Below, piece by piece: positions 4,057 through 57,333 of a DNA stretch of 57,333 nt; the first letter of the stretch is position 1; each line of letters begins with the position of its first letter. This DNA is from Eubacteriales bacterium (GTDB taxonomy: Bacteria; Bacillota; Clostridia; Oscillospirales; CAG-272): the NCBI GenBank assembly GCA_045631445.1, contig JAZQUS010000039.1, positions 1 through 57,333 of the forward strand, given 5' to 3'. Under the pieces are notes generated by a model, which ran no database searches, was not told where the DNA came from, and was given only the letters and a program-made list of their open reading frames with translations. The position numbers and the translations under genes were made by a program.

Positions 4057-4910
4057 TTCGCACCTCCCAAAAGTCTTGCTATTTCTTTAACGGCTTCTTC
4101 TTCGGTATAAATACCGTTATTAACCTTAATTCCACGAGCATTAAGCTCATGCATAAGCAATGTTATTTGAGGAACGGCAAGTCCTATTTTTTCAAGCATT
4201 TGGGACTGAGTAAACACCTCATCACGCGTGCCGTTAAGCACAACCTCACCGTGTGAAAGCACGATAATATCGTCGCAAAGACGAGCCATATCCTCCATAC
4301 TGTGACTTACAATGATAACCGTAGCACCGGTCTTTTCACGATATTTGAAAATCCCGTCCAAAATCACGTCACGTCCTTGAGGGTCAAGTCCCGCTGCAGG
4401 CTCATCAAGAACGAGCACCTCGGGGCGCATCGCAATAACACCCGCAATAGCAACTCTTCTCTTTTGACCGCCAGAAAGATCAAAGGGATTCTTTTGAAGC
4501 ACATCGGGAGAGAGTCCAACAAAATCGATAGCTTCATTTATTCTTTCGGCAATTTCAAGTTCGTTAAGTCCCATATTTTTAGGACCATAAGCAATATCCT
4601 TTTCAACAGTTTCTTCAAACAACTGATATTCAGGATACTGCATAACAAGTCCAACTCTAAAACGAACCTTGCCAATTTCCTTCGGCTTTTCCCAAATATC
4701 AACACCGTCAAGAAGCACCTTACCCTCGCTTGGGGTAGCAAGTCCGTTAAGAAGCTGAAGCATCGTGCTTTTTCCACTTCCCGTGTGTCCTATAAGACCT
4801 GTAATTGAACCTTCTTTTATTTCGATATTAACATTTTTTAATGCTTCTTTACAATATGCCGTTCCCTTGCCGTAGAAGAACGACACATCCTGAAGTTTAA
4901 TTTTTGCCAT
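4053..4910 (-). CDS. ecfA2: ECF transporter ATPase A2
   Basis: Walker A GHTGSGKST, QYPEYQLF, LSGGQKRR, LDEPAAGLDP. Confidence 0.93.
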   Translation of the reverse strand: MAKIKLQDVSFFYGKGTAYCKEALKNVNIEIKEGSITGLIGHTGSGKSTMLQLLNGLATPSEGKVLLDGVDIWEKPKEIGKVRFRVGLVMQYPEYQLFEETVEKDIAYGPKNMGLNELEIAERINEAIDFVGLSPDVLQKNPFDLSGGQKRRVAIAGVIAMRPEVLVLDEPAAGLDPQGRDVILDGIFKYREKTGATVIIVSHSMEDMARLCDDIIVLSHGEVVLNGTRDEVFTQSQMLEKIGLAVPQITLLMHELNARGIKVNNGIYTEEEAVKEIARLLGGAK

Positions 4911-5775
4911 TTTTCTTTTTAAGTGCTGCCTCTATCGCCTCTGCACACGCAGTAGGTGTATGGCATTCTCCTTCAATTATTATTCCTTGTTTTTTAAGTG
5001 AATGAACAAGCCCCACACATTGTGGAACGTCAAGTCCACATTCACGAAGCTTTTCGGATTTCTCAAAAATCTCGGCAGGGCTTCCGTCCATAAGAATTTT
5101 GCCATCGTCAAGAACAACGATTCTATTAGCTCTTGCCGCCTCGTCCATATAATGAGTAATCATAATTATGGTAATACCGTGCTCACAATTGAGTTTTTCA
5201 ATGGTATTCATAATATCGCGTCTACCAAGTGGATCAAGCATAGCGGTTGACTCGTCAAAAATCATACAGTCGGGCTTCATTGCAAGAATACCCGCTATCG
5301 CAATTCTCTGCTTTTGACCGCCCGAAAGTCGCGCGGGCTCACCCTTTGCATATTCACTCATACCTACTACAGAAAGTGCCTCATCAACTCTGCGACGGAT
5401 TTCTGCAGGCGCAATTCCAAGATTTTCAGGACCAAACGCAACATCGTCCTCAACTATAGTTGCAACGAGCTGGTTATCAGGATTTTGGAATACCATTCCT
5501 ACCTTCTTTCGAAGCTCGAAAACATCATCCTCCGTCATTTCAGGATTAGTAATGTCCTTGCCCTCAATGTATATTTTGCCCGAATCCGGCTCAAGTATCA
5601 TATTGAGAAGCTTTGCAAGAGTTGACTTTCCGCTTCCGTTGTGACCGAGCACCGCAAGATATTCACCCTTTTTAATATCAAGGGAAATATTCTTCAAAAC
5701 ACTCGTTCTAGCTCCGTCATCCTCTTCGTAGCTAACACATAAATTCTCTATTTTAATATAAGAATCAGAATTCAC
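4897..5775 (-). CDS. ecfA1: ECF transporter ATPase A1
   Basis: Walker A GHNGSGKST, FQNPDNQ, LSGGQKQR, DESTAMLDP; GTG start. Confidence 0.93.
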   Translation of the reverse strand: MNSDSYIKIENLCVSYEEDDGARTSVLKNISLDIKKGEYLAVLGHNGSGKSTLAKLLNMILEPDSGKIYIEGKDITNPEMTEDDVFELRKKVGMVFQNPDNQLVATIVEDDVAFGPENLGIAPAEIRRRVDEALSVVGMSEYAKGEPARLSGGQKQRIAIAGILAMKPDCMIFDESTAMLDPLGRRDIMNTIEKLNCEHGITIIMITHYMDEAARANRIVVLDDGKILMDGSPAEIFEKSEKLRECGLDVPQCVGLVHSLKKQGIIIEGECHTPTACAEAIEAALKKKNGKN

Positions 5776-5805
5776 CTTGTGACTTTCCTTTCTTTTTTGT
5801 TTAAA

Positions 5806-6672
5806 TTATTTTTCCTCCTGCCAACGCGCACTTGCTCCGCATGGCATAAATCCTCCGCTATATTTAACGGGGAGCGCAATCTCGCTTGCTTCACATTTGC
5901 CACCGTGAACCTTAGAAATGCGAAGATCAACAATATAACTCATAGTAAGGGGAGATAATCCTGTTGTATATGAGTTGATCAAGAAGAACAAGGGCTTGTC
6001 TGAAAGCACCTTTGATGTAAGCGCAACCAAATCGTCAATGCTATCCTCAATCTTCCAAATTTCACCCGAAGGCCCTCTACCGTAAGAGGGTGGGTCCATA
6101 ATAATTGCATCATATTTGTTACCGCGTCGAATTTCGCGCTCAACAAACTTTTTGCAGTCGTCAACAATATAACGAATGGGAGCATTTTCAAGTCCGGAAA
6201 GCTTTGCATTTTCCTTTGCCTGAGCAACCATTCCCTTTGCAGCATCTACGTGACAAACTGATGCCCCCGCCTTTGCCGCCGCAACTGTTGCACCACCCGT
6301 ATATGCAAACAAATTAAGTACCTTAATAGGTCTGCCCGCGTTCTTAATAAGGTCAGAAAACCAATCCCAGTTAGCCGCCTGCTCGGGGAAAAGTCCCGTG
6401 TGCTTAAATCCCATTGGGCGAAGCACAAAGCCAAGCTCACCATAAGTAATATTCCATTCTTCAGGGAGATTTTTCTTAACCCATTTACCGCCACCCGTGT
6501 TTGCGCGACGATAAATACCATCCGCCTTTTTCCATTCGGGCGCGTTTCTTTCACTGTGCCAAATTATCTGCGGGTCGGGTCTTATAAGTATATATTTTCC
6601 CCATCTTTCAAGACGTTCACCGTCAGATGCGTCAAGAAGCTGATAGTCTTTCCAATTATTTGCACTCCACAT
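5806..6672 (-). CDS. Class I SAM-dependent methyltransferase (RlmI/RlmK-like family)
   Basis: Start reassigned to MWSANNWKDY (ATG 6672); FKHTGLFPEQ, VLNLFAYTGG, DPPSYG motifs. Confidence 0.85.
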   Translation of the reverse strand: MWSANNWKDYQLLDASDGERLERWGKYILIRPDPQIIWHSERNAPEWKKADGIYRRANTGGGKWVKKNLPEEWNITYGELGFVLRPMGFKHTGLFPEQAANWDWFSDLIKNAGRPIKVLNLFAYTGGATVAAAKAGASVCHVDAAKGMVAQAKENAKLSGLENAPIRYIVDDCKKFVEREIRRGNKYDAIIMDPPSYGRGPSGEIWKIEDSIDDLVALTSKVLSDKPLFFLINSYTTGLSPLTMSYIVDLRISKVHGGKCEASEIALPVKYSGGFMPCGASARWQEEK

Positions 6673-20065: not shown

Positions 20066-20809
20066 TTATTTTTTTATAGATATTGTAAATTTGCAATCAG
20101 GATAATGGCAACAAGCCCAATACTCACCGTATCTTCCTCTTTTTTTAATCAAATTCCCCTTGCATTTTGGACAAATATTATTATTCACATAATAATCGTT
20201 ATCAAATTTCTTTTGTTTAATATTTTCAACGTGTTTCCAACGGGATATAGTATCACTTATATTGTTATTTAACAATGTTTCATATATTGATTTCATTTCA
20301 TACGGACTTAGTGTGTATTCACTATACACATTCATTCTACTATTAAGTTCCCAAGGAGAACAAACATAACTTGATTTTATGTATTCTACATTTCCTCTAA
20401 TAAACACCACCAATGAATTAATCGCCACATATTCAGGAAAGAACTGCTTTATAACACAAACATGCTTATAATTTTGCCTAACAGGACTATAAATAGGATG
20501 TTTGACCTTGCCGTAGTTCAAAACCTGTGTCCATTGCTTTTGGTAATCATCACCATAAATTCTTCCTTTGTAATTTTTTGTTTCAATTACATATATTCCT
20601 GATGAATTAATAACAATATGGTCAATTTGAGTTGTATTATCACCATCGGTTCGCAACAATAAATCATGAATAACATATTTTTCTTGTCCATGTGCTTCTG
20701 ATGTTTCACCGATTATTAACTTAATAATAAATTCTCCAATCATCCCTTTAAATGTTGGTGTTTTAACAAATATAAATACAACAATAGCTAATATCAATAA
20801 TATTCCCAT
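20066..20809 (-). CDS. NERD-domain protein with N-terminal TM segment and C-terminal topoisomerase-type C4 zinc ribbon
   Basis: KGMIGE, TQIDHIVI..GIYVIETKNYKG, SPVRQN; CPKCKGNL...GEYWACCHYPDCKFT. Confidence 0.85.
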   Translation of the reverse strand: MGILLILAIVVFIFVKTPTFKGMIGEFIIKLIIGETSEAHGQEKYVIHDLLLRTDGDNTTQIDHIVINSSGIYVIETKNYKGRIYGDDYQKQWTQVLNYGKVKHPIYSPVRQNYKHVCVIKQFFPEYVAINSLVVFIRGNVEYIKSSYVCSPWELNSRMNVYSEYTLSPYEMKSIYETLLNNNISDTISRWKHVENIKQKKFDNDYYVNNNICPKCKGNLIKKRGRYGEYWACCHYPDCKFTISIKK

Positions 20810-21077
20810 AAACTCCCCTTGCAAAAATTTAATAGCTTATATATTTTAACACACTCTTTATACATTGGCAACCCTTTTCTTATTTCTAGCAATACAATTC
20901 ATCAAATTCCCATTTGAGTGGGTTTTCGTAGATGTATTTTGATATTTCTTCAAAATCGCGTTTGTTACGGATTACGTGGTCGTAATAATACCGTTGCCAA
21001 ATATTTTTGCCAATTTCCTTGTTGCAAAATCGTTTGAAGGTTGATACAAACGCAGGCACTACGGAATGTTGCTTAAC

Positions 21078-21105
21078 CGTAGGGGTCGGCGTCCTCGACG
21101 ACCCG
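21078..21105 (+). repeat. GTAG-tagged REP-like palindrome, copy 1 (inside RAYT CDS)
   Basis: CGTAG-GGGTCG-GCGTCCTCGA-CGACCC-G. Confidence 0.8.
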
Positions 21106-21242
21106 TCCTCGCGCACAAACAAAATCATGTGTATGTGATCGGGCATAATCACATATTGTTCAACAGATATATTTTCATAAAAATTATTTAATTGGTTGAT
21201 ATATTTGTCCGCAATTTTTCCATATGCCGTCAATTCAACACG

Positions 21243-21270
21243 CGGGTCGTCGGGGACGTCGACCCCTACG
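21243..21270 (-). repeat. GTAG-tagged REP-like palindrome, copy 2 (inverted, inside RAYT CDS)
   Basis: Reverse complement CGTAG-GGGTCG-ACGTCCCCGA-CGACCC-G; 26/28 identical to copy 1. Confidence 0.8.
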
Positions 21271-21408
21271 ATTTTGGATAATATTCTTCTACGCTTATCC
21301 GTACAAATCGTTATGAAATACGCCCCTGGCTCGGAATAATCGTAATTCTTTAATCTTATTTCTTTTCTCTTCGACAAATTTTCACTCATTTTTGTCACCA
21401 CCAAATAC

Positions 21409-21437
21409 ATTATATCACAAAATCCGCAGATAGACAA
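21409..21437 (-). promoter_or_regulatory. Sigma-A-type promoter of RAYT
   Basis: TTGTCT-17 bp-TATAAT with extended -10 TG; overlaps the glgB terminator. Confidence 0.6.
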
Positions 21438-21451
21438 GTCCATCTGCGGAT
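21422..21451 (-). terminator. Intrinsic terminator of glgB
   Basis: ATCCGCAGAT...ATCTGCGGAT stem followed by TTTT on the minus strand. Confidence 0.7.
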
Positions 21452-51871: not shown

Positions 51872-52825
51872 TTATTTCAAATCTATTCTATTTCTTATTT
51901 CACCACTAAAATATGATTTTATATTTTCCTTAACTTCCCCAAGAAGTCTAACTCTTGCTTCATATGAGCCCCAAGCCATGTGGGGAGTGAGAAGAACGTT
52001 ATCCTTATCTTTGATTTCATAAAATGGATGGCTTGTACCAAACGGCTCACAGGAATAAACATCGCATCCAAATCCTGAAATTTTACCGGATTTCACAGCA
52101 TCAACAATAGCGGACTCATCAGTAACCGCACCTCTTGCAACGTTTACAAGTATAACTCCATCACGCATACTTGCAATTCTCTTTGCATCAATAAGTCCTC
52201 GCGTACCTTCATTAAGTGGAGTATGAAGCGTAATAATATCACATTCCTTGCAAATCGTATCAATATCAACACATTTGTAATCAGATACTTCTTTCCTCTT
52301 ATTTACAAGCACCTCGCAACCAAGTGCTTCGGCTACTTTGGCTACAGCTCTACCGATATTTCCAAACCCAATAATTCCCCACTTAAGACCGTTAATTTCG
52401 TGATATGTCGGCGCAAGAATATTGGCAACTCCGCGTTCGCTATAATAACCATTTGCAACGCTTCTTTGATATTCCTTGCTCTTATTAATAAGTTGAAGAA
52501 CAAACCCAACCGTTATCTGCGCAACATTGTTGGTTGAATAGCCAACCACGTTACAAACACCGATGCTTCTATTTTTAGCGTAATTAACGTCAATATTGTC
52601 AAAGCCCGTAGCAGTAACGCAAATGAGTTTTAAATTCTTCGCATTTGCGAGCGTTTTTTCATTCAATTTCAGTTTGTTTGTGATAACCACATCACAATCA
52701 GCAGTTCTTTCTTTAATTTCTTCTTCGGTGCTTGAGCCATACACCTCAACCTCACCCAAGTCATTAAAATTCGAAAGGTCAATATCTCCGCCCAAAGCAA
52801 GAGCATCTAAAAATACTATTTTCAT
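51872..52825 (-). CDS. D-2-hydroxyacid dehydrogenase family protein
   Basis: ATGFDNID, GIIGFGNIG, LHTPL, VNVARG, LTPHMAW. Confidence 0.9.
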   Translation of the reverse strand: MKIVFLDALALGGDIDLSNFNDLGEVEVYGSSTEEEIKERTADCDVVITNKLKLNEKTLANAKNLKLICVTATGFDNIDVNYAKNRSIGVCNVVGYSTNNVAQITVGFVLQLINKSKEYQRSVANGYYSERGVANILAPTYHEINGLKWGIIGFGNIGRAVAKVAEALGCEVLVNKRKEVSDYKCVDIDTICKECDIITLHTPLNEGTRGLIDAKRIASMRDGVILVNVARGAVTDESAIVDAVKSGKISGFGCDVYSCEPFGTSHPFYEIKDKDNVLLTPHMAWGSYEARVRLLGEVKENIKSYFSGEIRNRIDLK

Positions 52826-52848: not shown

Positions 52849-53282
52849 TGATAAATTAGGATTTAGCGAGTAGTTACAAAGATAAAAAAGGTCGCTTTTG
52901 AAAAAGCTCCGCAAAACTTTTAATCAGCTTCGCGCAAGATTTTGCGCAAATTGTGTCAACAAGTTGACACATAACGTTTTTCTCGGTGTATGACAGGCAC
53001 CTCGAAAAACTGTAATTTGCTACTAAATGGATAGACATGTTGATAACAAAATGTCTATGCGCAGAGTAGCAAGGCGCGGTTTTTATCGCACTTGTGCGGT
53101 GAAAACGATTGTGACGAGCGCGTCAGAAGTGAGTCACGCGCGTTGCGCGGAATTTGGTAGAATTTTTACAACTGTACGGCTACACTAATACCCACATTTT
53201 AAAGTTTTTCAGGGTGTGGGGCGGTTTTTCAAAAAAGCCCCATATCTTTGCTCAACTAACTTCCAAATAAATCAAAATTTGA
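52849..53282. repeat. Hairpin-dense non-coding element with imperfect inverted termini (MITE-like or ncRNA), copy 1
   Basis: Shares blocks with 57048-57333 including an identical 36-mer (52890-52925 = 57090-57125); right end is an inverted homolog of the left end; at least five internal hairpins. Confidence 0.75.
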
Positions 53283-53292
53283 ATACTAGTAC

Positions 53293-53321
53293 ATAATAAC
53301 ACAAAAAAGGCGCAAATTCAA
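53293..53321 (-). promoter_or_regulatory. Sigma-A-type promoter firing through element copy 1 toward the dehydrogenase
   Basis: TTGAAT-17 bp-TATTAT with extended TG. Confidence 0.6.
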
Positions 53322-53337
53322 GTGAAATGCGCCTTTT
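53305..53337 (-). terminator. Intrinsic terminator of the XRE/S24 repressor gene
   Basis: AAAAGGCGCA...TGCGCCTTTT. Confidence 0.75.
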
Positions 53338-53342
53338 ATTTA

Positions 53343-54161
53343 TTATTTTCTTTTCAATTTACCAATTACTCGACCAACGCAGCTAACGTTTTCAAAATCC
53401 TTAAGCAAAATGTCACCGTACATCGTGTTCATAGAGATGAGGCGGTCACCACCGTAAATCTTGAAAAATCCGTTTCCGTCGAGAATGAAAATACCAAGCT
53501 CACCAACCTCAACGTAATCGGAATTAGCAACCAAAAGAACGTCGCCATCGCGATATTTGGGTTCCATACTGTTACCACTAATTCGGAGCGCGAAATCTGC
53601 CTCGCGAGTTCTTTCGTTATCTGGAATCATAATTTCCTCGCTAGCAGGAGAATCTACGAAAACACCAACACCGGCAGAAACAGGCATATCGAAGAGTGCA
53701 ACCGCACGTTTTCCAAGTCCTCTGTTTTGAGCAAGCTCGCGAGCAGAAATTCTCTCTGTTGGAACAGCAATAGAAGGCAAAATCTTGGGTGATTTCTCCT
53801 TAACATCAACAGAATGATCCTGATATGGCGCGCGTGCTACTCTTTCCTTTTCTTTATCAAGAACGAGGGTCACAAGCTCCTTTCCGTGTGTATCGAGTGC
53901 GCGATAGTTTTCAATAAGGCGCATCTCTCCCCTATCAAGAGTGAAGTTGTTTGTATTTTCAGGAACACCGTTCACAACGTATTCAAGAGTTGTTCCGAGC
54001 GCATCGCAAATAGAAACGATGTTTGAAAGCTTGGGACTATCACTAATCCCTGCAAGAATTTTAGAAAGTGTTCCGAGTGGAATTCCGGTCATTTCCGAAA
54101 GCATATCGTTAGTTATTTTCTTTTCACTTTTGAGTAATTTTATTCTATCAATATAATCCAT
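53343..54161 (-). CDS. XRE HTH / S24 peptidase (LexA/CI-like) self-cleaving repressor
   Basis: N-terminal HTH (LSEMTGIPLGTLSKI); cleavage-site motif VSAG, catalytic GNSMEP and FFK. Confidence 0.88.
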   Translation of the reverse strand: MDYIDRIKLLKSEKKITNDMLSEMTGIPLGTLSKILAGISDSPKLSNIVSICDALGTTLEYVVNGVPENTNNFTLDRGEMRLIENYRALDTHGKELVTLVLDKEKERVARAPYQDHSVDVKEKSPKILPSIAVPTERISARELAQNRGLGKRAVALFDMPVSAGVGVFVDSPASEEIMIPDNERTREADFALRISGNSMEPKYRDGDVLLVANSDYVEVGELGIFILDGNGFFKIYGGDRLISMNTMYGDILLKDFENVSCVGRVIGKLKRK

Positions 54162-54188
54162 AAAAGTTCTCCTTTGCAAATCAAGAAT

Positions 54189-54425
54189 TTCCTTTTGTGG
54201 AATTATTATAACACACATTTTCCTATTTGTAAAGTGGTTTTTAAAATTTTTTAAAATATTTTTCCAAAATTAGAAAAAATCTATTGACAAACAATATCAA
54301 ATGTGGTATTATGATGTCACAAGATTTCCAAAACAAGAAAAGGACCACAATTATGAACGCTACATATACATACAAATCAGGAAGAAACAACATCACATTT
54401 GATAACGGAAATTCCAAAAAAGGAA
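54189..54425. promoter_or_regulatory. Divergent promoter pair with five TTCC-N6-(G/A)GAA candidate operators
   Basis: Minus promoter TTTACA-17-TATAAT (54233-54205), plus promoter TTGACA-17-TATTAT (54284-54312); sites start at 54189, 54220, 54262, 54326, 54412. Confidence 0.7.
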
Positions 54426-54742: not shown

Positions 54743-56467
54743 TTATTCAACAATAACGTATTCGGGAAGTTCAACAACAGTTGTGCCTACGTTTGAAACT
54801 AATATTTCTCCTACTAATTTCATATCGTATTCATCAACATACGCAATCATTCCAATTTTTTCAAGCTCACCATCATTGAAATACAAATACATCTGATATA
54901 CAATGCCGTCAGAGGTTACGTTGCCCTCGTATCTACCTTGATATTCATTGTATGTGAAATCAGAGTAATTAAGCTTAGTTTCAACTGTTTGAGAGCTTAT
55001 GCTAAAATCCTCAACAGAATAATTTGTTTTTCTTGCCTCGTATCTTTCGGTTTCTTCATTATAAGTGATGTTATATACTCCATCATCTAAATAGGCGCGG
55101 TAAGGATAATTATGTCCGGGTTCGCAGTAACCATTTTCTGCACCTTTAGCGTGTGTGGAATATACACCGAGTGACTCACCCGTAGAAATTTTAGTACGTT
55201 CAACTGACGATTCTACCGTATAGTTAATGGAATTCGTTTGCTCGTTCCACTGCTCTTCGGTAACAACACCTTCATAAGTTGGAGGAATTTCAGTTCCTAC
55301 ATTCTCTTCATCAATAGTAAATTCAGGAAGTGTAACGGTGGTTGTTCCAATATCTGCCAAAGCCAAAATAATTTCTACTCCCTCAGTTATATAAACACCC
55401 TTAATAAGCTCTCCGTTTTCAAAGTAGAGGTAAAGTTCAACACCTTCAACGTTAACCTTATAATATCTTCCCTCTTCATCATATGTGAGGTATTCGGTGC
55501 TCATATATTCTCTTGCGGTTTCGATAGCAGCATTAAAATCGTCCATAGTTGCGTCCATATCGGTTGCAAGATATCCGTCACCGTATTGTTCAATAGAATA
55601 GAACTTGCCGTCAACCAAAGCAACGTATTGCTGCATCACTTCACCCATATAATCGGCATACAATTCGAGCGCAGTATCAGCAACCTTCAAGCTTACATCA
55701 ACACCCATATAAGCAATCATTATACCTGCATTGATAGTGAAATTTCTCAATTCAAGATATGGAGCAAGCTCTTCATTAGTAACTGTTGTTCTAACGTCTG
55801 CAGATGCCTTGCTTGGATCAACCTTACCGTCATTAATAATAGTGTATTCAGGAATTTCGATAACGGTTGTGCCAACGTTTGTGATTTCATAGGATTGAGC
55901 ATAATCTCCTTCTCCTGCAGAAATCGTTCCCTTGGCAAGCAAACCATCTTCAAAGAAGAATTCAGCATTTACACCATCTTCATTTAATGTATAAGACTCA
56001 GTTTCTTCATTGTATACAAGTTTATCAAATGAACCTTCCTCAGGGGACATTCCAATCATTTCTAAAGTAACTCCACCAGATTCTCCAAGTTCTGCGGAAA
56101 GTCCTTCCATATAGAAAGCTAACCATCCTGCCTTGGTTTCGGAAAGCATACATTCGTTTTCAACATCTACCAATATACTCACTGAATATTCGCCTTCATT
56201 TACTTCGTACTTTATAGCGGAATCATCAACAACCATAAGGGTGACCATTTCTCCGACAACAATTTCAATGGTAAAGTTATTTGCATTAAATACAGAATTC
56301 CATTCTTCTTCAGTGATAGTTGTTCTAAATTCCTCTTGTGTTTCAGGAGTTGTTGTAAACTGTTCAAGGAAGTTAATGAGATAACCCTTCGCAGTTTCCA
56401 TATCACAAGAAACAAGAGATGTGAGTAACACGAGTGCTACAAGTGTAAGTGATAATAATTTTTTCAT
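54743..56467 (-). CDS. Acidic lipoprotein with three tandem domains, function unknown
   Basis: Lipobox LVSC; three repeats bounded by (I/V)T.E(E/Q)...N(F/Y)T and (F/Y)F..G.L...(V/I)GTT...PE(Y/F). Confidence 0.75.
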   Translation of the reverse strand: MKKLLSLTLVALVLLTSLVSCDMETAKGYLINFLEQFTTTPETQEEFRTTITEEEWNSVFNANNFTIEIVVGEMVTLMVVDDSAIKYEVNEGEYSVSILVDVENECMLSETKAGWLAFYMEGLSAELGESGGVTLEMIGMSPEEGSFDKLVYNEETESYTLNEDGVNAEFFFEDGLLAKGTISAGEGDYAQSYEITNVGTTVIEIPEYTIINDGKVDPSKASADVRTTVTNEELAPYLELRNFTINAGIMIAYMGVDVSLKVADTALELYADYMGEVMQQYVALVDGKFYSIEQYGDGYLATDMDATMDDFNAAIETAREYMSTEYLTYDEEGRYYKVNVEGVELYLYFENGELIKGVYITEGVEIILALADIGTTTVTLPEFTIDEENVGTEIPPTYEGVVTEEQWNEQTNSINYTVESSVERTKISTGESLGVYSTHAKGAENGYCEPGHNYPYRAYLDDGVYNITYNEETERYEARKTNYSVEDFSISSQTVETKLNYSDFTYNEYQGRYEGNVTSDGIVYQMYLYFNDGELEKIGMIAYVDEYDMKLVGEILVSNVGTTVVELPEYVIVE

Positions 56468-56567
56468 AGTGTTTTTTCCTTTCTTTAGATAAATTAGATG
56501 TAACTCATCTTGTAACAATTTTAGCACATATTTATTAGTTTTGCAATACATTTTATAATATTTATAC

Positions 56568-56595
56568 AAAAAACGGCTCATTTGAGCCGTTTTTT
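56568..56595 (-). terminator. Intrinsic terminator after HIT gene
   Basis: AAAAAACGGCTC-ATTT-GAGCCGTTTTTT. Confidence 0.8.
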
Positions 56596-57047: not shown

Positions 57048-57333
57048 TGATAAATTGGGATTTAGCGAATAGTTAGTTGAGTAAAGATGGGTCGCTTTTG
57101 AAAAAGCTCCGCAAAACTTTTAATCGTGGGTATTGAATTAAGACCGCGCAAATTGTGTCACGCCTCGCGCAAAAAAACAATAGTTAATAGAAAATAAATG
57201 GCGAGGCAAACAAACCGTTTGATGTCTACACGACATCATTTTGCGAGCAAAAACACGGTTTGTCTATGTGCCGTTATAGAACTAATGATTTTTCTCGGTG
57301 TTAGCAGGCACCTCGAAAAATCCAATTTGCTAC
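57048..57333. repeat. Hairpin-dense non-coding element, copy 2 (truncated by window end)
   Basis: Shared blocks with 52849-53023; different internal hairpin module between shared blocks. Confidence 0.75.

Follow-up and report, generated by a model that had tools for sequence, protein, structure and literature searches.

A hairpin-dense, gene-less sequence of about 430 bp lies between two genes of an uncultured clostridial genome, and raises the question of what it is and how it came to be there. The stretch of DNA analysed, here called the window, is 57,333 nucleotides long and constitutes contig C39 of a 1.77-Mb draft genome (G000; 148 contigs, 39.4% G+C). A sequence-only reading had described the sequence as an element present twice, with exchangeable internal stems, and had proposed a new family which would be either a non-autonomous mobile element or a large structured RNA. 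The first part of this proposal stood: the element is very probably a copy of a non-autonomous repeat family, as indicated by its hundreds of sharp-ended copies, by presence and absence at an orthologous site and by the failure to find any copy that bears an ORF. The second part, an RNA gene or a cis-regulatory RNA, did not, since the element has no orientation bias relative to flanking genes, no internal promoter and no Rfam match.

Setting and anatomy of the element

The element is located in a 517-bp gap bounded by two minus-strand genes, which family searches identified as a D-2-hydroxyacid dehydrogenase (51872-52825) and an HTH plus S24 peptidase repressor-like protein (53343-54218). The ORF scan found no ORF of meaningful length in the gap, in keeping with the earlier view of the element as non-coding. 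Its end motifs were found at 52853 (plus strand) and 53280 (minus strand) by the end-motif search, and BLASTN coverage drops from about 50 to about 2 at positions 52851 and 53283. Because a promoter-like site overlaps the terminator hairpin of the upstream gene, the element appears to lie between the -10 box and the ribosome-binding site of the dehydrogenase gene. The TGTTAAAAT that adjoins this terminator is retained in the empty sites of relatives. The features of the locus are as follows.

52850..53283, plus: whole element, 428 bp from AAATT.. (52853) to ..AATTT (53280), with its conserved flanks
52850-52 (GAT) and 53281-83 (GAA), plus: conserved flanks of the element, the edges where genome-wide BLASTN coverage falls
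52853..52889, plus: T2-type terminus (AAATTAGGATTTAGCGAGTAGTTACAAAGATAAAAAA), from position counts in the 107-end alignment
52894..52907, plus: H1, left-arm T/A-run hairpin (GCTTTTgAAAAAGC), with compensated variants among copies
52913-52925, plus: conserved AAAACTTTTAATC after H1, from the copy alignment
52932-47, plus: small hairpin, from the folds
52944-54, plus: conserved left box GCGCAAATTGT, within the module 52932..52971
52952-71, plus: H3, hypervariable hairpin, from the folds
52976..53010, plus: H4, with outer stem TTTTTC/GAAAAA, a 2x2 internal loop and a co-varying inner stem
53016..53072, plus: stem of TTTGCTAC (53016-23) and GTAGCAA (53066-72) around H5
53032-57, plus: H5, enclosed by that stem
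53079..53106, plus: H7 (GTTTTTATCGCACttGTGCGGTGAAAAC), with two T·G wobbles on the plus strand
53111-37, plus: H8, GTGAC..GTCAC, from the folds and the alignment of full copies
53138-50, plus: right box GCGCGTTGCGCGG, inverse of the left box
53157..53184, plus: copy-specific 28-nt stretch, whose one BLASTN match is itself
53185..53280, minus: right arm, consisting of H1' (53218-41) and the T1-type terminus (AAATTTTGATTTATTTGGAAGTTAG.., preceded by TTC)
53295-53347 (setting 53293..53347), minus: terminator hairpin of the upstream gene, from sequence inspection
53321..53293, minus: promoter-like TTGAAT-17-TG-TATTAT, overlapping that terminator hairpin
57049..57333, plus: second copy, with T2 end at 57052, H1, box, a 120-nt insert replacing H3, and the start of H4

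The second copy (57052-57333) is cut off by the contig end, and its 120-nt insert is also found in contig C144. The blocks that the sequence-only reading had seen in both copies were recovered at their positions: a 28-mer (52849-76 and 57048-75, 93% identity), an identical 36-mer (52890-52925 and 57090-57125), GCGCAAATTGTGTCA (52944-58 and 57146-60) and CAGGCACCTCGAAAAA (52994-53009 and 57305-20). The right end of the first copy is indeed complementary to the left end of the second (48 nt, 73%), and all five of the hairpins named earlier are present in the minimum-energy folds.

As a whole, the element is a nested imperfect palindrome, in which a pseudo-palindromic core of five hairpins is enclosed in a shell of about 75-100 nt per side. 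The shell is formed by two unlike inverted ends, T2 (AAATTGGGATTT..) and T1 (AAATTTTGATTT.., flanked by TTC). Position counts over 107 aligned ends give the T2 consensus as nAT followed at the boundary by AAATTGGGATTTAKCG, and there are 131 such GG-type ends in the genome; the T1 consensus is TTC followed by AAATTTTGATTTATCG, and a looser motif detects 185 TT-type ends genome-wide, 126 of which are preceded by TTC. One T2 and one T1 end are joined in 56 of the 74 in-contig pairs. Reading inward, the family order is end, H1, AAAACTTTTAATCG and the box CCGCGCAAATYGT; the other side carries the inverse of this box, such that the two boxes close the core. Between the boxes are found, in order, H3, H4, the stem around H5, H7 and H8, and the stem around H5 places two inverted GTAG words at the core centre.

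The modules differ from copy to copy in both sequence and arrangement. The compensated variants of H1 include CTTCTTTTTcgagAAAAAGAAG and GTTCTTTTTgaAAAAAGAAC, while H3 is swapped in other copies for unrelated perfect hairpins, or for the 120-nt insert of the second copy and C144. In 16 aligned full copies GCGCC/GGCGC is replaced by GTGAC/GTCAC in H8; the loop of H4 is conserved (..CAGG). Modules A-E differ in copy number, and the modules other than the copy-specific stretch have 59-113 BLASTN matches each, except the B module (14). The core occurs in either orientation relative to the ends (33 vs 9). Combination of modules in differing orders, numbers and orientations is a BIME-type trait. Among the 66 paired elements above 150 bp in length, 45 cluster as the main subfamily; the window element, a typical member, is close to its mode of about 420 bp. 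The rest, with other interiors between the same ends, form two smaller subfamilies (10 and 3 members) and 8 singletons. Pair lengths range from 57 to about 680 bp (the longest genuine pair in G000 being 683 bp), and in the mini-forms of 57-140 bp nothing but the two ends is left, fused at H1 in some copies.

Copies, sites and interiors across the genus

The estimate of two copies proved far too low. A BLASTN search of the genome with its own 517-bp gap gave 318 HSPs in 185 loci, amounting to 38,001 bp or 2.1% of the genome, and a two-copy duplication is thus not what is observed. A 16-nt end motif with at most one mismatch was found 254 times in the genome, compared to 3 times in a reversed control, and a looser end motif gave 388 matches against 52 in a shuffled genome. 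The similarity ends at a single base in the alignment of 107 terminal modules. Ends that lack a partner on their own contig number 240, of which 123 are no more than 700 bp from where a contig stops, and the family is therefore behind much of the fragmentation seen in the assembly. The copies of this genome are only 70-85% alike, and gaps between convergent genes are enriched for elements (22 of 69, against a background of 182 of 1142). Outside G000, 20 of 22 genomes of the genus have DNA matches to the element; 18 genomes that represent 18 other genera of the family and order have none, and the plasmid and phage collections contained no match either.

The site of the window element was compared in 15 genomes with both flanking genes on one contig. 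Empty sites were present in ten of these, with a 91-103-bp gap that lacks the element. In G000, G002, G014, G003 and G006 the same two ends stand in the same place and enclose 428, about 115, about 330, about 400 and about 45 bp, respectively, of sequence that is otherwise unrelated between the five occupied genomes. In a single-gene tree with midpoint root, taken as a topology without support values, the occupied genomes fall in one clade of nine that has two empty members. A single old insertion, later subject to replacement, shrinkage and loss, would fit the pattern; insertion more than once at this site is an alternative reading. At two other sites, C17:17462 and C17:13047, the ends are likewise the same and the interiors differ between G000, G020 and G002. 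At C45:11018, the difference between G000 and G020 consists of the element and one further terminator.

Most traceable sites are occupied in the three closest relatives as well, and the copies are therefore old. Between species in which the remaining intergenic DNA can no longer be aligned, the ends are still conserved. The family is thus an old, vertically inherited population and not the outcome of a recent burst. No clean, recent empty site was found among the sites traced, those of the window being too diverged, and this counts against the single-stranded DNA mechanism with a RAYT enzyme that is considered below. An indel at C17:4357 was also considered as an empty site and was rejected as an unrelated small-gene cassette.

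A fold kept by compensatory changes

The element folds better than shuffled sequences as DNA (z -5.5) and as RNA on its two strands (z -6.2 and -5.6), with none of 100 shuffles as stable in the DNA or the RNA folds, and in both the T2 and T1 ends pair with each other. For the covariation alignment, 28 central cores spanning H4 to H7 were taken from G000 and its relatives. Paired cells make up 96.5% of it, compared to 90.6% in shuffles, and 43 double-sided changes are seen where 14.8 are expected; neither value was reached by any of 500 shuffles, and sliding the partners as a control lowers pairing to 49-63%. In H4, the pairs 15:32 (GC/AU), 16:31 (CG/GC) and 17:30 (UA/CG) have no unpaired cell, and the inner stem appears as GGTG/CACC, ACTG/CAGT, CGCC/GGCG and AGGC/GCCT. 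Helix 2, which is the stem of TTTGCTAC and GTAGCAA, is 96.4% paired over the 28 copies; about 7 of the 28 do not conserve H5. H7 exists in four unrelated stem variants, each with a 5'-U·G-3' wobble, and in the alignment U·G occupies 52 cells against 8 for A·C or C·A, with U always on the 5' side.

The stems are kept by compensatory changes, and the conserved U·G wobbles are on one strand only. As RNA, one and the same strand is the more stable in 35 of 42 full copies, by a mean of 9.9 kcal/mol, and in the window copy that strand runs antisense to local transcription. The cores also share conserved loop and junction motifs. Modules reassort, because the H4 and H7 variants are found in all four combinations (a1, a2, b1, b2). 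The notion of exchangeable internal stems is hence borne out by fully compensated stem variants as well as by the free combination of modules.

Candidate enzyme, rival explanations and known repeats

The window also codes for a protein that may be involved in the spread of the family.

20886..21443, minus: candidate RAYT-like Y1 HUH gene, with matches to NF047646 and PF01797

Its scores are 70.5 bits for NF047646 (cut-off 80) and 26.2 bits for PF01797 (cut-off 23), and it shows HIH and YYYDHVIRN. Within the gene, in-frame inverted GTAG-headed REPs at 21075-21105 and 21243-21273, with arms of 31 nt that are 90% complementary, bracket the HUH motif. The genome has four RAYT-like loci, of which the window gene and that on C135 are intact and those on C7 and C23 are split. 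A GTAG REP pair lies inside the gene in 27 of 29 RAYT homologs, with arms matching at 20-22 of 22 positions, and the arms differ between RAYT paralog groups. REPs inside the transposase gene are described for TnpA-REP subclass 2.4 in the sections of Quentin et al. 2018 (PMC6006769) used here, and this arrangement is thus not new. Extragenic copies number 10, 10 and 49 per RAYT arm type, where none are expected by chance. Of the commonest type, 41 of 53 copies are located inside, or just inward of, T1/T2 ends, in several cases as a 127-bp cassette next to H5, which is tandemly repeated in C97.

RAYT and the family occur together in 17 of the 22 other genomes of the genus, and both are missing from 2. 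The remaining 3 (G004, G016 and G022) show DNA matches to the element but no RAYT, and RAYT alone is never seen. In G008, G011 and G016, all without RAYT, end motifs do not exceed background (4, 2 and 1, respectively). RAYT follows the distribution of the element better than rve and DDE_Tnp_1, the two families of DDE transposase that were tested; these occur in 9 and 7 of 23 genomes, respectively, and neither tracks the family. G008, G011 and G016 group together, however, and the co-distribution with RAYT consequently represents one or two evolutionary events. In two genomes with end motifs, G004 (54 motifs, assembly 78% complete) and G022 (33 motifs, 90% complete), no RAYT was found by protein query and family search.

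Several results count against a link to RAYT. T1/T2 ends bracket none of the 29 RAYT loci searched, so that the defining REPtron arrangement is lacking for the shell, and a good end motif occurs within 1.5 kb of only 7 of the 29. Canonical REPs are absent from the window copy, and four genomes outside the genus have RAYT homologs without a DNA match to the element. The GTAG words of the window copy, at 53020-23 (minus strand) and 53066-69, are 9-10 nt from the feet of H4 and H7 and are paired together, and position counts in the 107-end alignment reveal no fixed GTAG in the T1/T2 ends. Elements of the IS200/IS605 type show replication-strand bias, and long inverted ends are typical of DDE-type MITEs and not of HUH elements. 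Relative to GC skew, neither whole elements (20 vs 23) nor cores (17 vs 18) were biased; single ends, when pooled, gave a weak bias (94 vs 64).

The search for an autonomous copy covered this genome and stretches of other genomes that contain the family. By a strict definition of ends, G000 has no facing pair longer than 683 bp with genuine ends; long pairs under a relaxed definition (629, 874 and 1452 bp) proved to be ordinary genes with chance end-like words. No gene-bearing copy was found among 112 stretches of other genomes, in which six of seven long pairs were inspected, none of them resembling a transposase element when their ORFs were judged by eye, and the seventh (L115) was left out as belonging to an unrelated phylum. 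The only inspected long pair with two real ends, L070, encloses two lipoprotein-like ORFs (again by eye). Neither a TnpB domain nor a nuclease-bearing small full-length form was seen in G000, and a full-length IS with T1/T2 ends was found neither there nor among the stretches of other genomes. The larger ORF-carrying copies suggested by the sequence-only reading thus did not come to light. Two candidate parents in G000 were set aside: IS110, present as one copy on a 1.7-kb contig without an element match, and the rve IS481-like element, which is the only multi-copy IS and has unrelated ends of its own.

On balance, the best reading, to which somewhat less than an even chance is given, is a REPIN/BIME-like mosaic repeat copied as single-stranded hairpin DNA, likely via RAYT. 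The mechanism in itself is advanced tentatively, since we infer both the single-stranded intermediate and the role of RAYT as the enzyme. The family would have come to occupy its intergenic sites in an ancestor shared by part of the genus, and would since have been inherited mostly vertically, while its interiors were presumably shuffled, swapped, shrunk to mini-forms and colonised by GTAG-headed REPs. The element may be handled as single-stranded DNA, one strand of which would fold into a rod-and-branches structure; a Y1 HUH enzyme could then cut and rejoin the folded strand, with no target duplication being made. The best candidate for this enzyme would be the RAYT-like transposase of the genus.

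A different origin, unlikely on the present evidence, would be that of a classical MITE superfamily: its parent would have been a DDE-type IS bearing these ends, now lost or missing from the drafts, and the REPs would be later squatters. Terminal inverted repeats without coding capacity are a MITE-type trait, the sharp inverted termini differ between left and right as in IRL/IRR, and several interior subfamilies on one end pair are usual for MITEs. The two genomes that have ends without RAYT would also be accommodated, and drafts break at repeats, so that an IS could be missing. Nevertheless, the flanks of 56 T2-T1 pairs share no 2-8-nt k-mer above re-pairing controls (16 offsets), and hence bear no target duplication; no ORF-bearing copy was found in G000 or the 112 stretches, and the one multi-copy IS of G000 has ends unrelated to T1 and T2. 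The two DDE families are patchy, rve being present even in the element-free G008 and G011, and the conservation of the ends across species points to an enzyme that is still in most genomes. The reading in which the DNA is a resident architectural sequence, kept by the host for protein binding, termination or insulation, immobile and homogenised by gene conversion, is distinctly unlikely. It would account for the age of the copies, as most checked sites are occupied in the closest relatives, for their being only 70-85% alike, for the enrichment in convergent gaps and for the reassortment of H4 and H7 variants. Spread to hundreds of sites must have happened at some time, though, and ends that are far better kept than interiors fit recognition by an enzyme, while the mini and tiny derivatives and the losses at the same site resemble decay and not maintenance.

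The properties of the fold could themselves be taken as the selected feature, in a multicopy structured non-coding RNA acting as a gene or as a cis-acting leader or trailer. The compensatory changes, the U·G pairs conserved on one strand, the consistently more stable strand (35 of 42 copies) and the conserved loop and junction motifs would suit such an RNA, which is nonetheless the most improbable of the readings considered. Relative to tandem flanking genes, the T2-to-T1 direction is the same in 8 cases and opposite in 15, and the core strand is the same in 8 and opposite in 10. The element contains nothing promoter-like, and the one such site in the vicinity would drive transcription of the other, less stable strand through it into the dehydrogenase gene. 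Rfam gave nothing at gathering score in the whole window, so that no described RNA family is matched; at E up to 10 there were chance-level matches only, almost all of them on the neighbouring terminator, and the single one inside the element, RAGATH-7-assoc (15.7 bits, cut-off 88.5, E 5.1), is at chance level too. The window contains no tRNA or tmRNA. Orthologous sites retain the ends around entirely different interiors, and a family that covers about 2% of the genome is also difficult to reconcile with an RNA. The constancy of the ends suggests one more idea, improbable as it is: the conserved unlike ends may be fixed docking sites, between which non-coding hairpin cargo is swapped as cassettes. 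It derives from the three orthologous sites that keep both ends around unrelated interiors, be these the structured core, REP doublets or other modules. If true, the docking system would loosely resemble an integron for non-coding modules, with the strand-specific, wobble-keeping five-hairpin core as its recognised substrate; and if the exchange were enzymatic and not due to gene conversion, a shell-and-cargo system for single-stranded DNA hairpins would constitute a new class of mobile element.

Under the preferred reading of a REPIN/BIME-like mosaic repeat, comparison with described systems is instructive in both directions. In the parts of the literature drawn on (PMC6006769, PMC5581495), REP, BIME and REPIN sequences are high-copy extragenic palindromic repeats, whose inverted doublets fold as one hairpin, and the same is seen here, with two inverted units folding as one. 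Further points of likeness to the repeats described there are mosaic clusters of modules in alternating orientation, the lack of a target duplication, long vertical persistence, RAYT-like genes in the genome, in-frame GTAG REPs and REP copies inside many family members. Compared to the REPs of these sources, the unit is 10-20 times longer, and it has an asymmetric T2/T1 shell without a GTAG foot; the GT[AG]G word at the hairpin foot that marks REPs is absent from the T1/T2 ends and from the window copy. As far as the consulted sections of Quentin et al. 2018 (PMC6006769) and Bertels et al. 2017 (PMC5581495) extend, Clostridia are named only for RAYT group 1 and subclass 1.1.

Bacterial MITEs listed in the part of Di Nocera et al. 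2013 (PMC3733652) used here include Correia/NEMIS, RUP, bcr1, ERIC, Nezha and EFAR. The element resembles the MITEs of this source in being gene-less and intergenic, in its terminal inverted repeats and strong hairpins, and in its occasional position between a promoter and a gene; it differs from them in having modular exchangeable interiors and neither a target duplication nor any same-ended parent IS that could be found. With 380-680 bp and arms of about 75 nt it is at or above the 70-300 bp given there for MITEs (PMC3733652). The same excerpts (PMC3733652) describe TIRtrons, in which RAYT-like TIRYT genes are flanked by long inverted repeats that form moderately abundant families. The likeness to TIRtrons, as portrayed in these excerpts, extends to long inverted-repeat families beside Y1 transposase genes, sometimes with GTAG REPs, yet TIRtron repeats flank the transposase gene and the T1/T2 repeats do not. 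The hairpins near the ends, the TTC next to T1 and the one-strand signature recall a further group. Palindrome-associated elements derived from IS200/IS605 have subterminal hairpins, no target duplication, one conserved flanking word and a one-strand signature, and elements of the IS200/IS605 type have unlike ends without a long inverted repeat and a TnpA/TnpB partner. In contrast to these, the ends of the present element are inverted repeats, with no TnpB found in G000 and no skew bias.

The family is real, abundant and genus-restricted, and consists of non-autonomous mosaic palindromic repeats that are closest to REP/BIME/REPIN sequences and hairpin MITEs. It falls outside the REP type, having no GTAG foot and leaving RAYT unflanked, and outside MITEs, having no target duplication and no parent IS; despite this, it works like both. 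Within the literature searched, supplements apart and in the portions of the papers covered, no description of a T1/T2 shell element was found, and the earlier designation as a new family holds as far as the searches reach. Three of its features are not described in the same portions of that literature: a shell that is asymmetric, a core of five hairpins that co-vary in a strand-specific manner, and the turnover of interiors at sites that stay fixed.

Repeats are rarely tolerated in small bacterial genomes, yet here a gene-less family occupies at least 2% of a 1.77-Mb genome, its members sitting between promoters, terminators and start codons. Knowledge of the family would aid the assembly and binning of these genomes. 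REP/BIME-like biology is known mostly from Proteobacteria, and the family extends it to a genus of uncultured gut Clostridia, and adds traits absent from the known families: a shell that is long and asymmetric, nested hairpins that co-vary and bear a one-strand signature, and interiors replaced at fixed sites. It thus offers a test bed for what RAYT-type enzymes recognise beyond the GTAG hairpin, for how mosaic repeats reshuffle and for how their inserts affect neighbouring genes.

Inverted palindromes within the RAYT-like gene

The candidate enzyme for the element family, a Y1 HUH transposase encoded in the window by a RAYT-like gene, carries two short GTAG-headed palindromes (REPs) within its coding sequence.

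20886-21443, (-) strand: RAYT-like gene
21075-21105 and 21243-21273: its REP arms
20066-20824, (-) strand: protein with a NERD nuclease domain and a topoisomerase-type zinc ribbon, immediately downstream, 61 bp from the RAYT-like gene

The arms form an inverted pair that flanks the HUH motif; both are in frame and encode the peptides VGVDVPDDP and GSSRTPTPT. The match of one arm to the other within the gene is found in 27 of 29 RAYT homologs, and the arm sequence varies from one paralog group to another. Exact 26-mers of the window gene's arm occur again at 5 extragenic places. An in-gene inverted REP arrangement has already been reported for TnpA-REP subclass 2.4 (PMC6006769).

REP copies, cassettes and insertion sequences in the genome

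Additional transposase genes are encoded elsewhere in the window's own genome, G000.

C7:19030-19546 and C23:2235-2752: split RAYT-like copies, two reading frames each
C73: about 4495-5895: insertion sequence of IS481-like (rve) type; ends of its own, TGTATACAATC..
C117:826-1299: IS110-family (DEDD) transposase, 404-aa frame, alone on a 1.7-kb contig

The two split copies are 90% alike. As internal arms they carry GTAGGGGRGCACTCCGTGCRCCCGC, which with 53 copies is the most abundant REP in G000. This common REP is also part of a 127-bp unit, repeated three times in tandem at C97:12250-12531, which comprises a hairpin like H5 of the element core, the common REP, a spacer and a second GTAG REP, inverted; a single such unit adjoins H5 in about 10 elements. 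The IS481-like sequence, present in three copies in G000, two of them at contig ends, interrupts on C73 a GTAG REP at its middle, and that REP itself lies within an element bearing the unlike inverted ends T1 and T2. BLASTN of the window gap against G000 gave no element match on the IS110-bearing contig.

Variable and regulatory stretches

Beside the element, in the stretch 53293-53347, a -35/extended -10 pair for the next gene and the terminator of the repressor-like gene overlap. The terminator and promoter thus have about 55 bp in common, since relatives with an empty site keep TGTTAAAAT at this stretch.

54743-56581, (-) strand: 612-aa ORF with internal DNA repeats (period about 525-560 bp)

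This ORF, which has no Pfam match, may encode a repetitive surface protein. A variable small-gene cassette with conserved flanks was observed at C17:4357-5266 by comparison with the same-genus relatives G020 (C59) and G002 (C25); the site holds about 900 bp in G000, a different 640 bp in G002 and nothing in G020, and each version adjoins the same promoter-like TTGACA..TAAAAT stretch.
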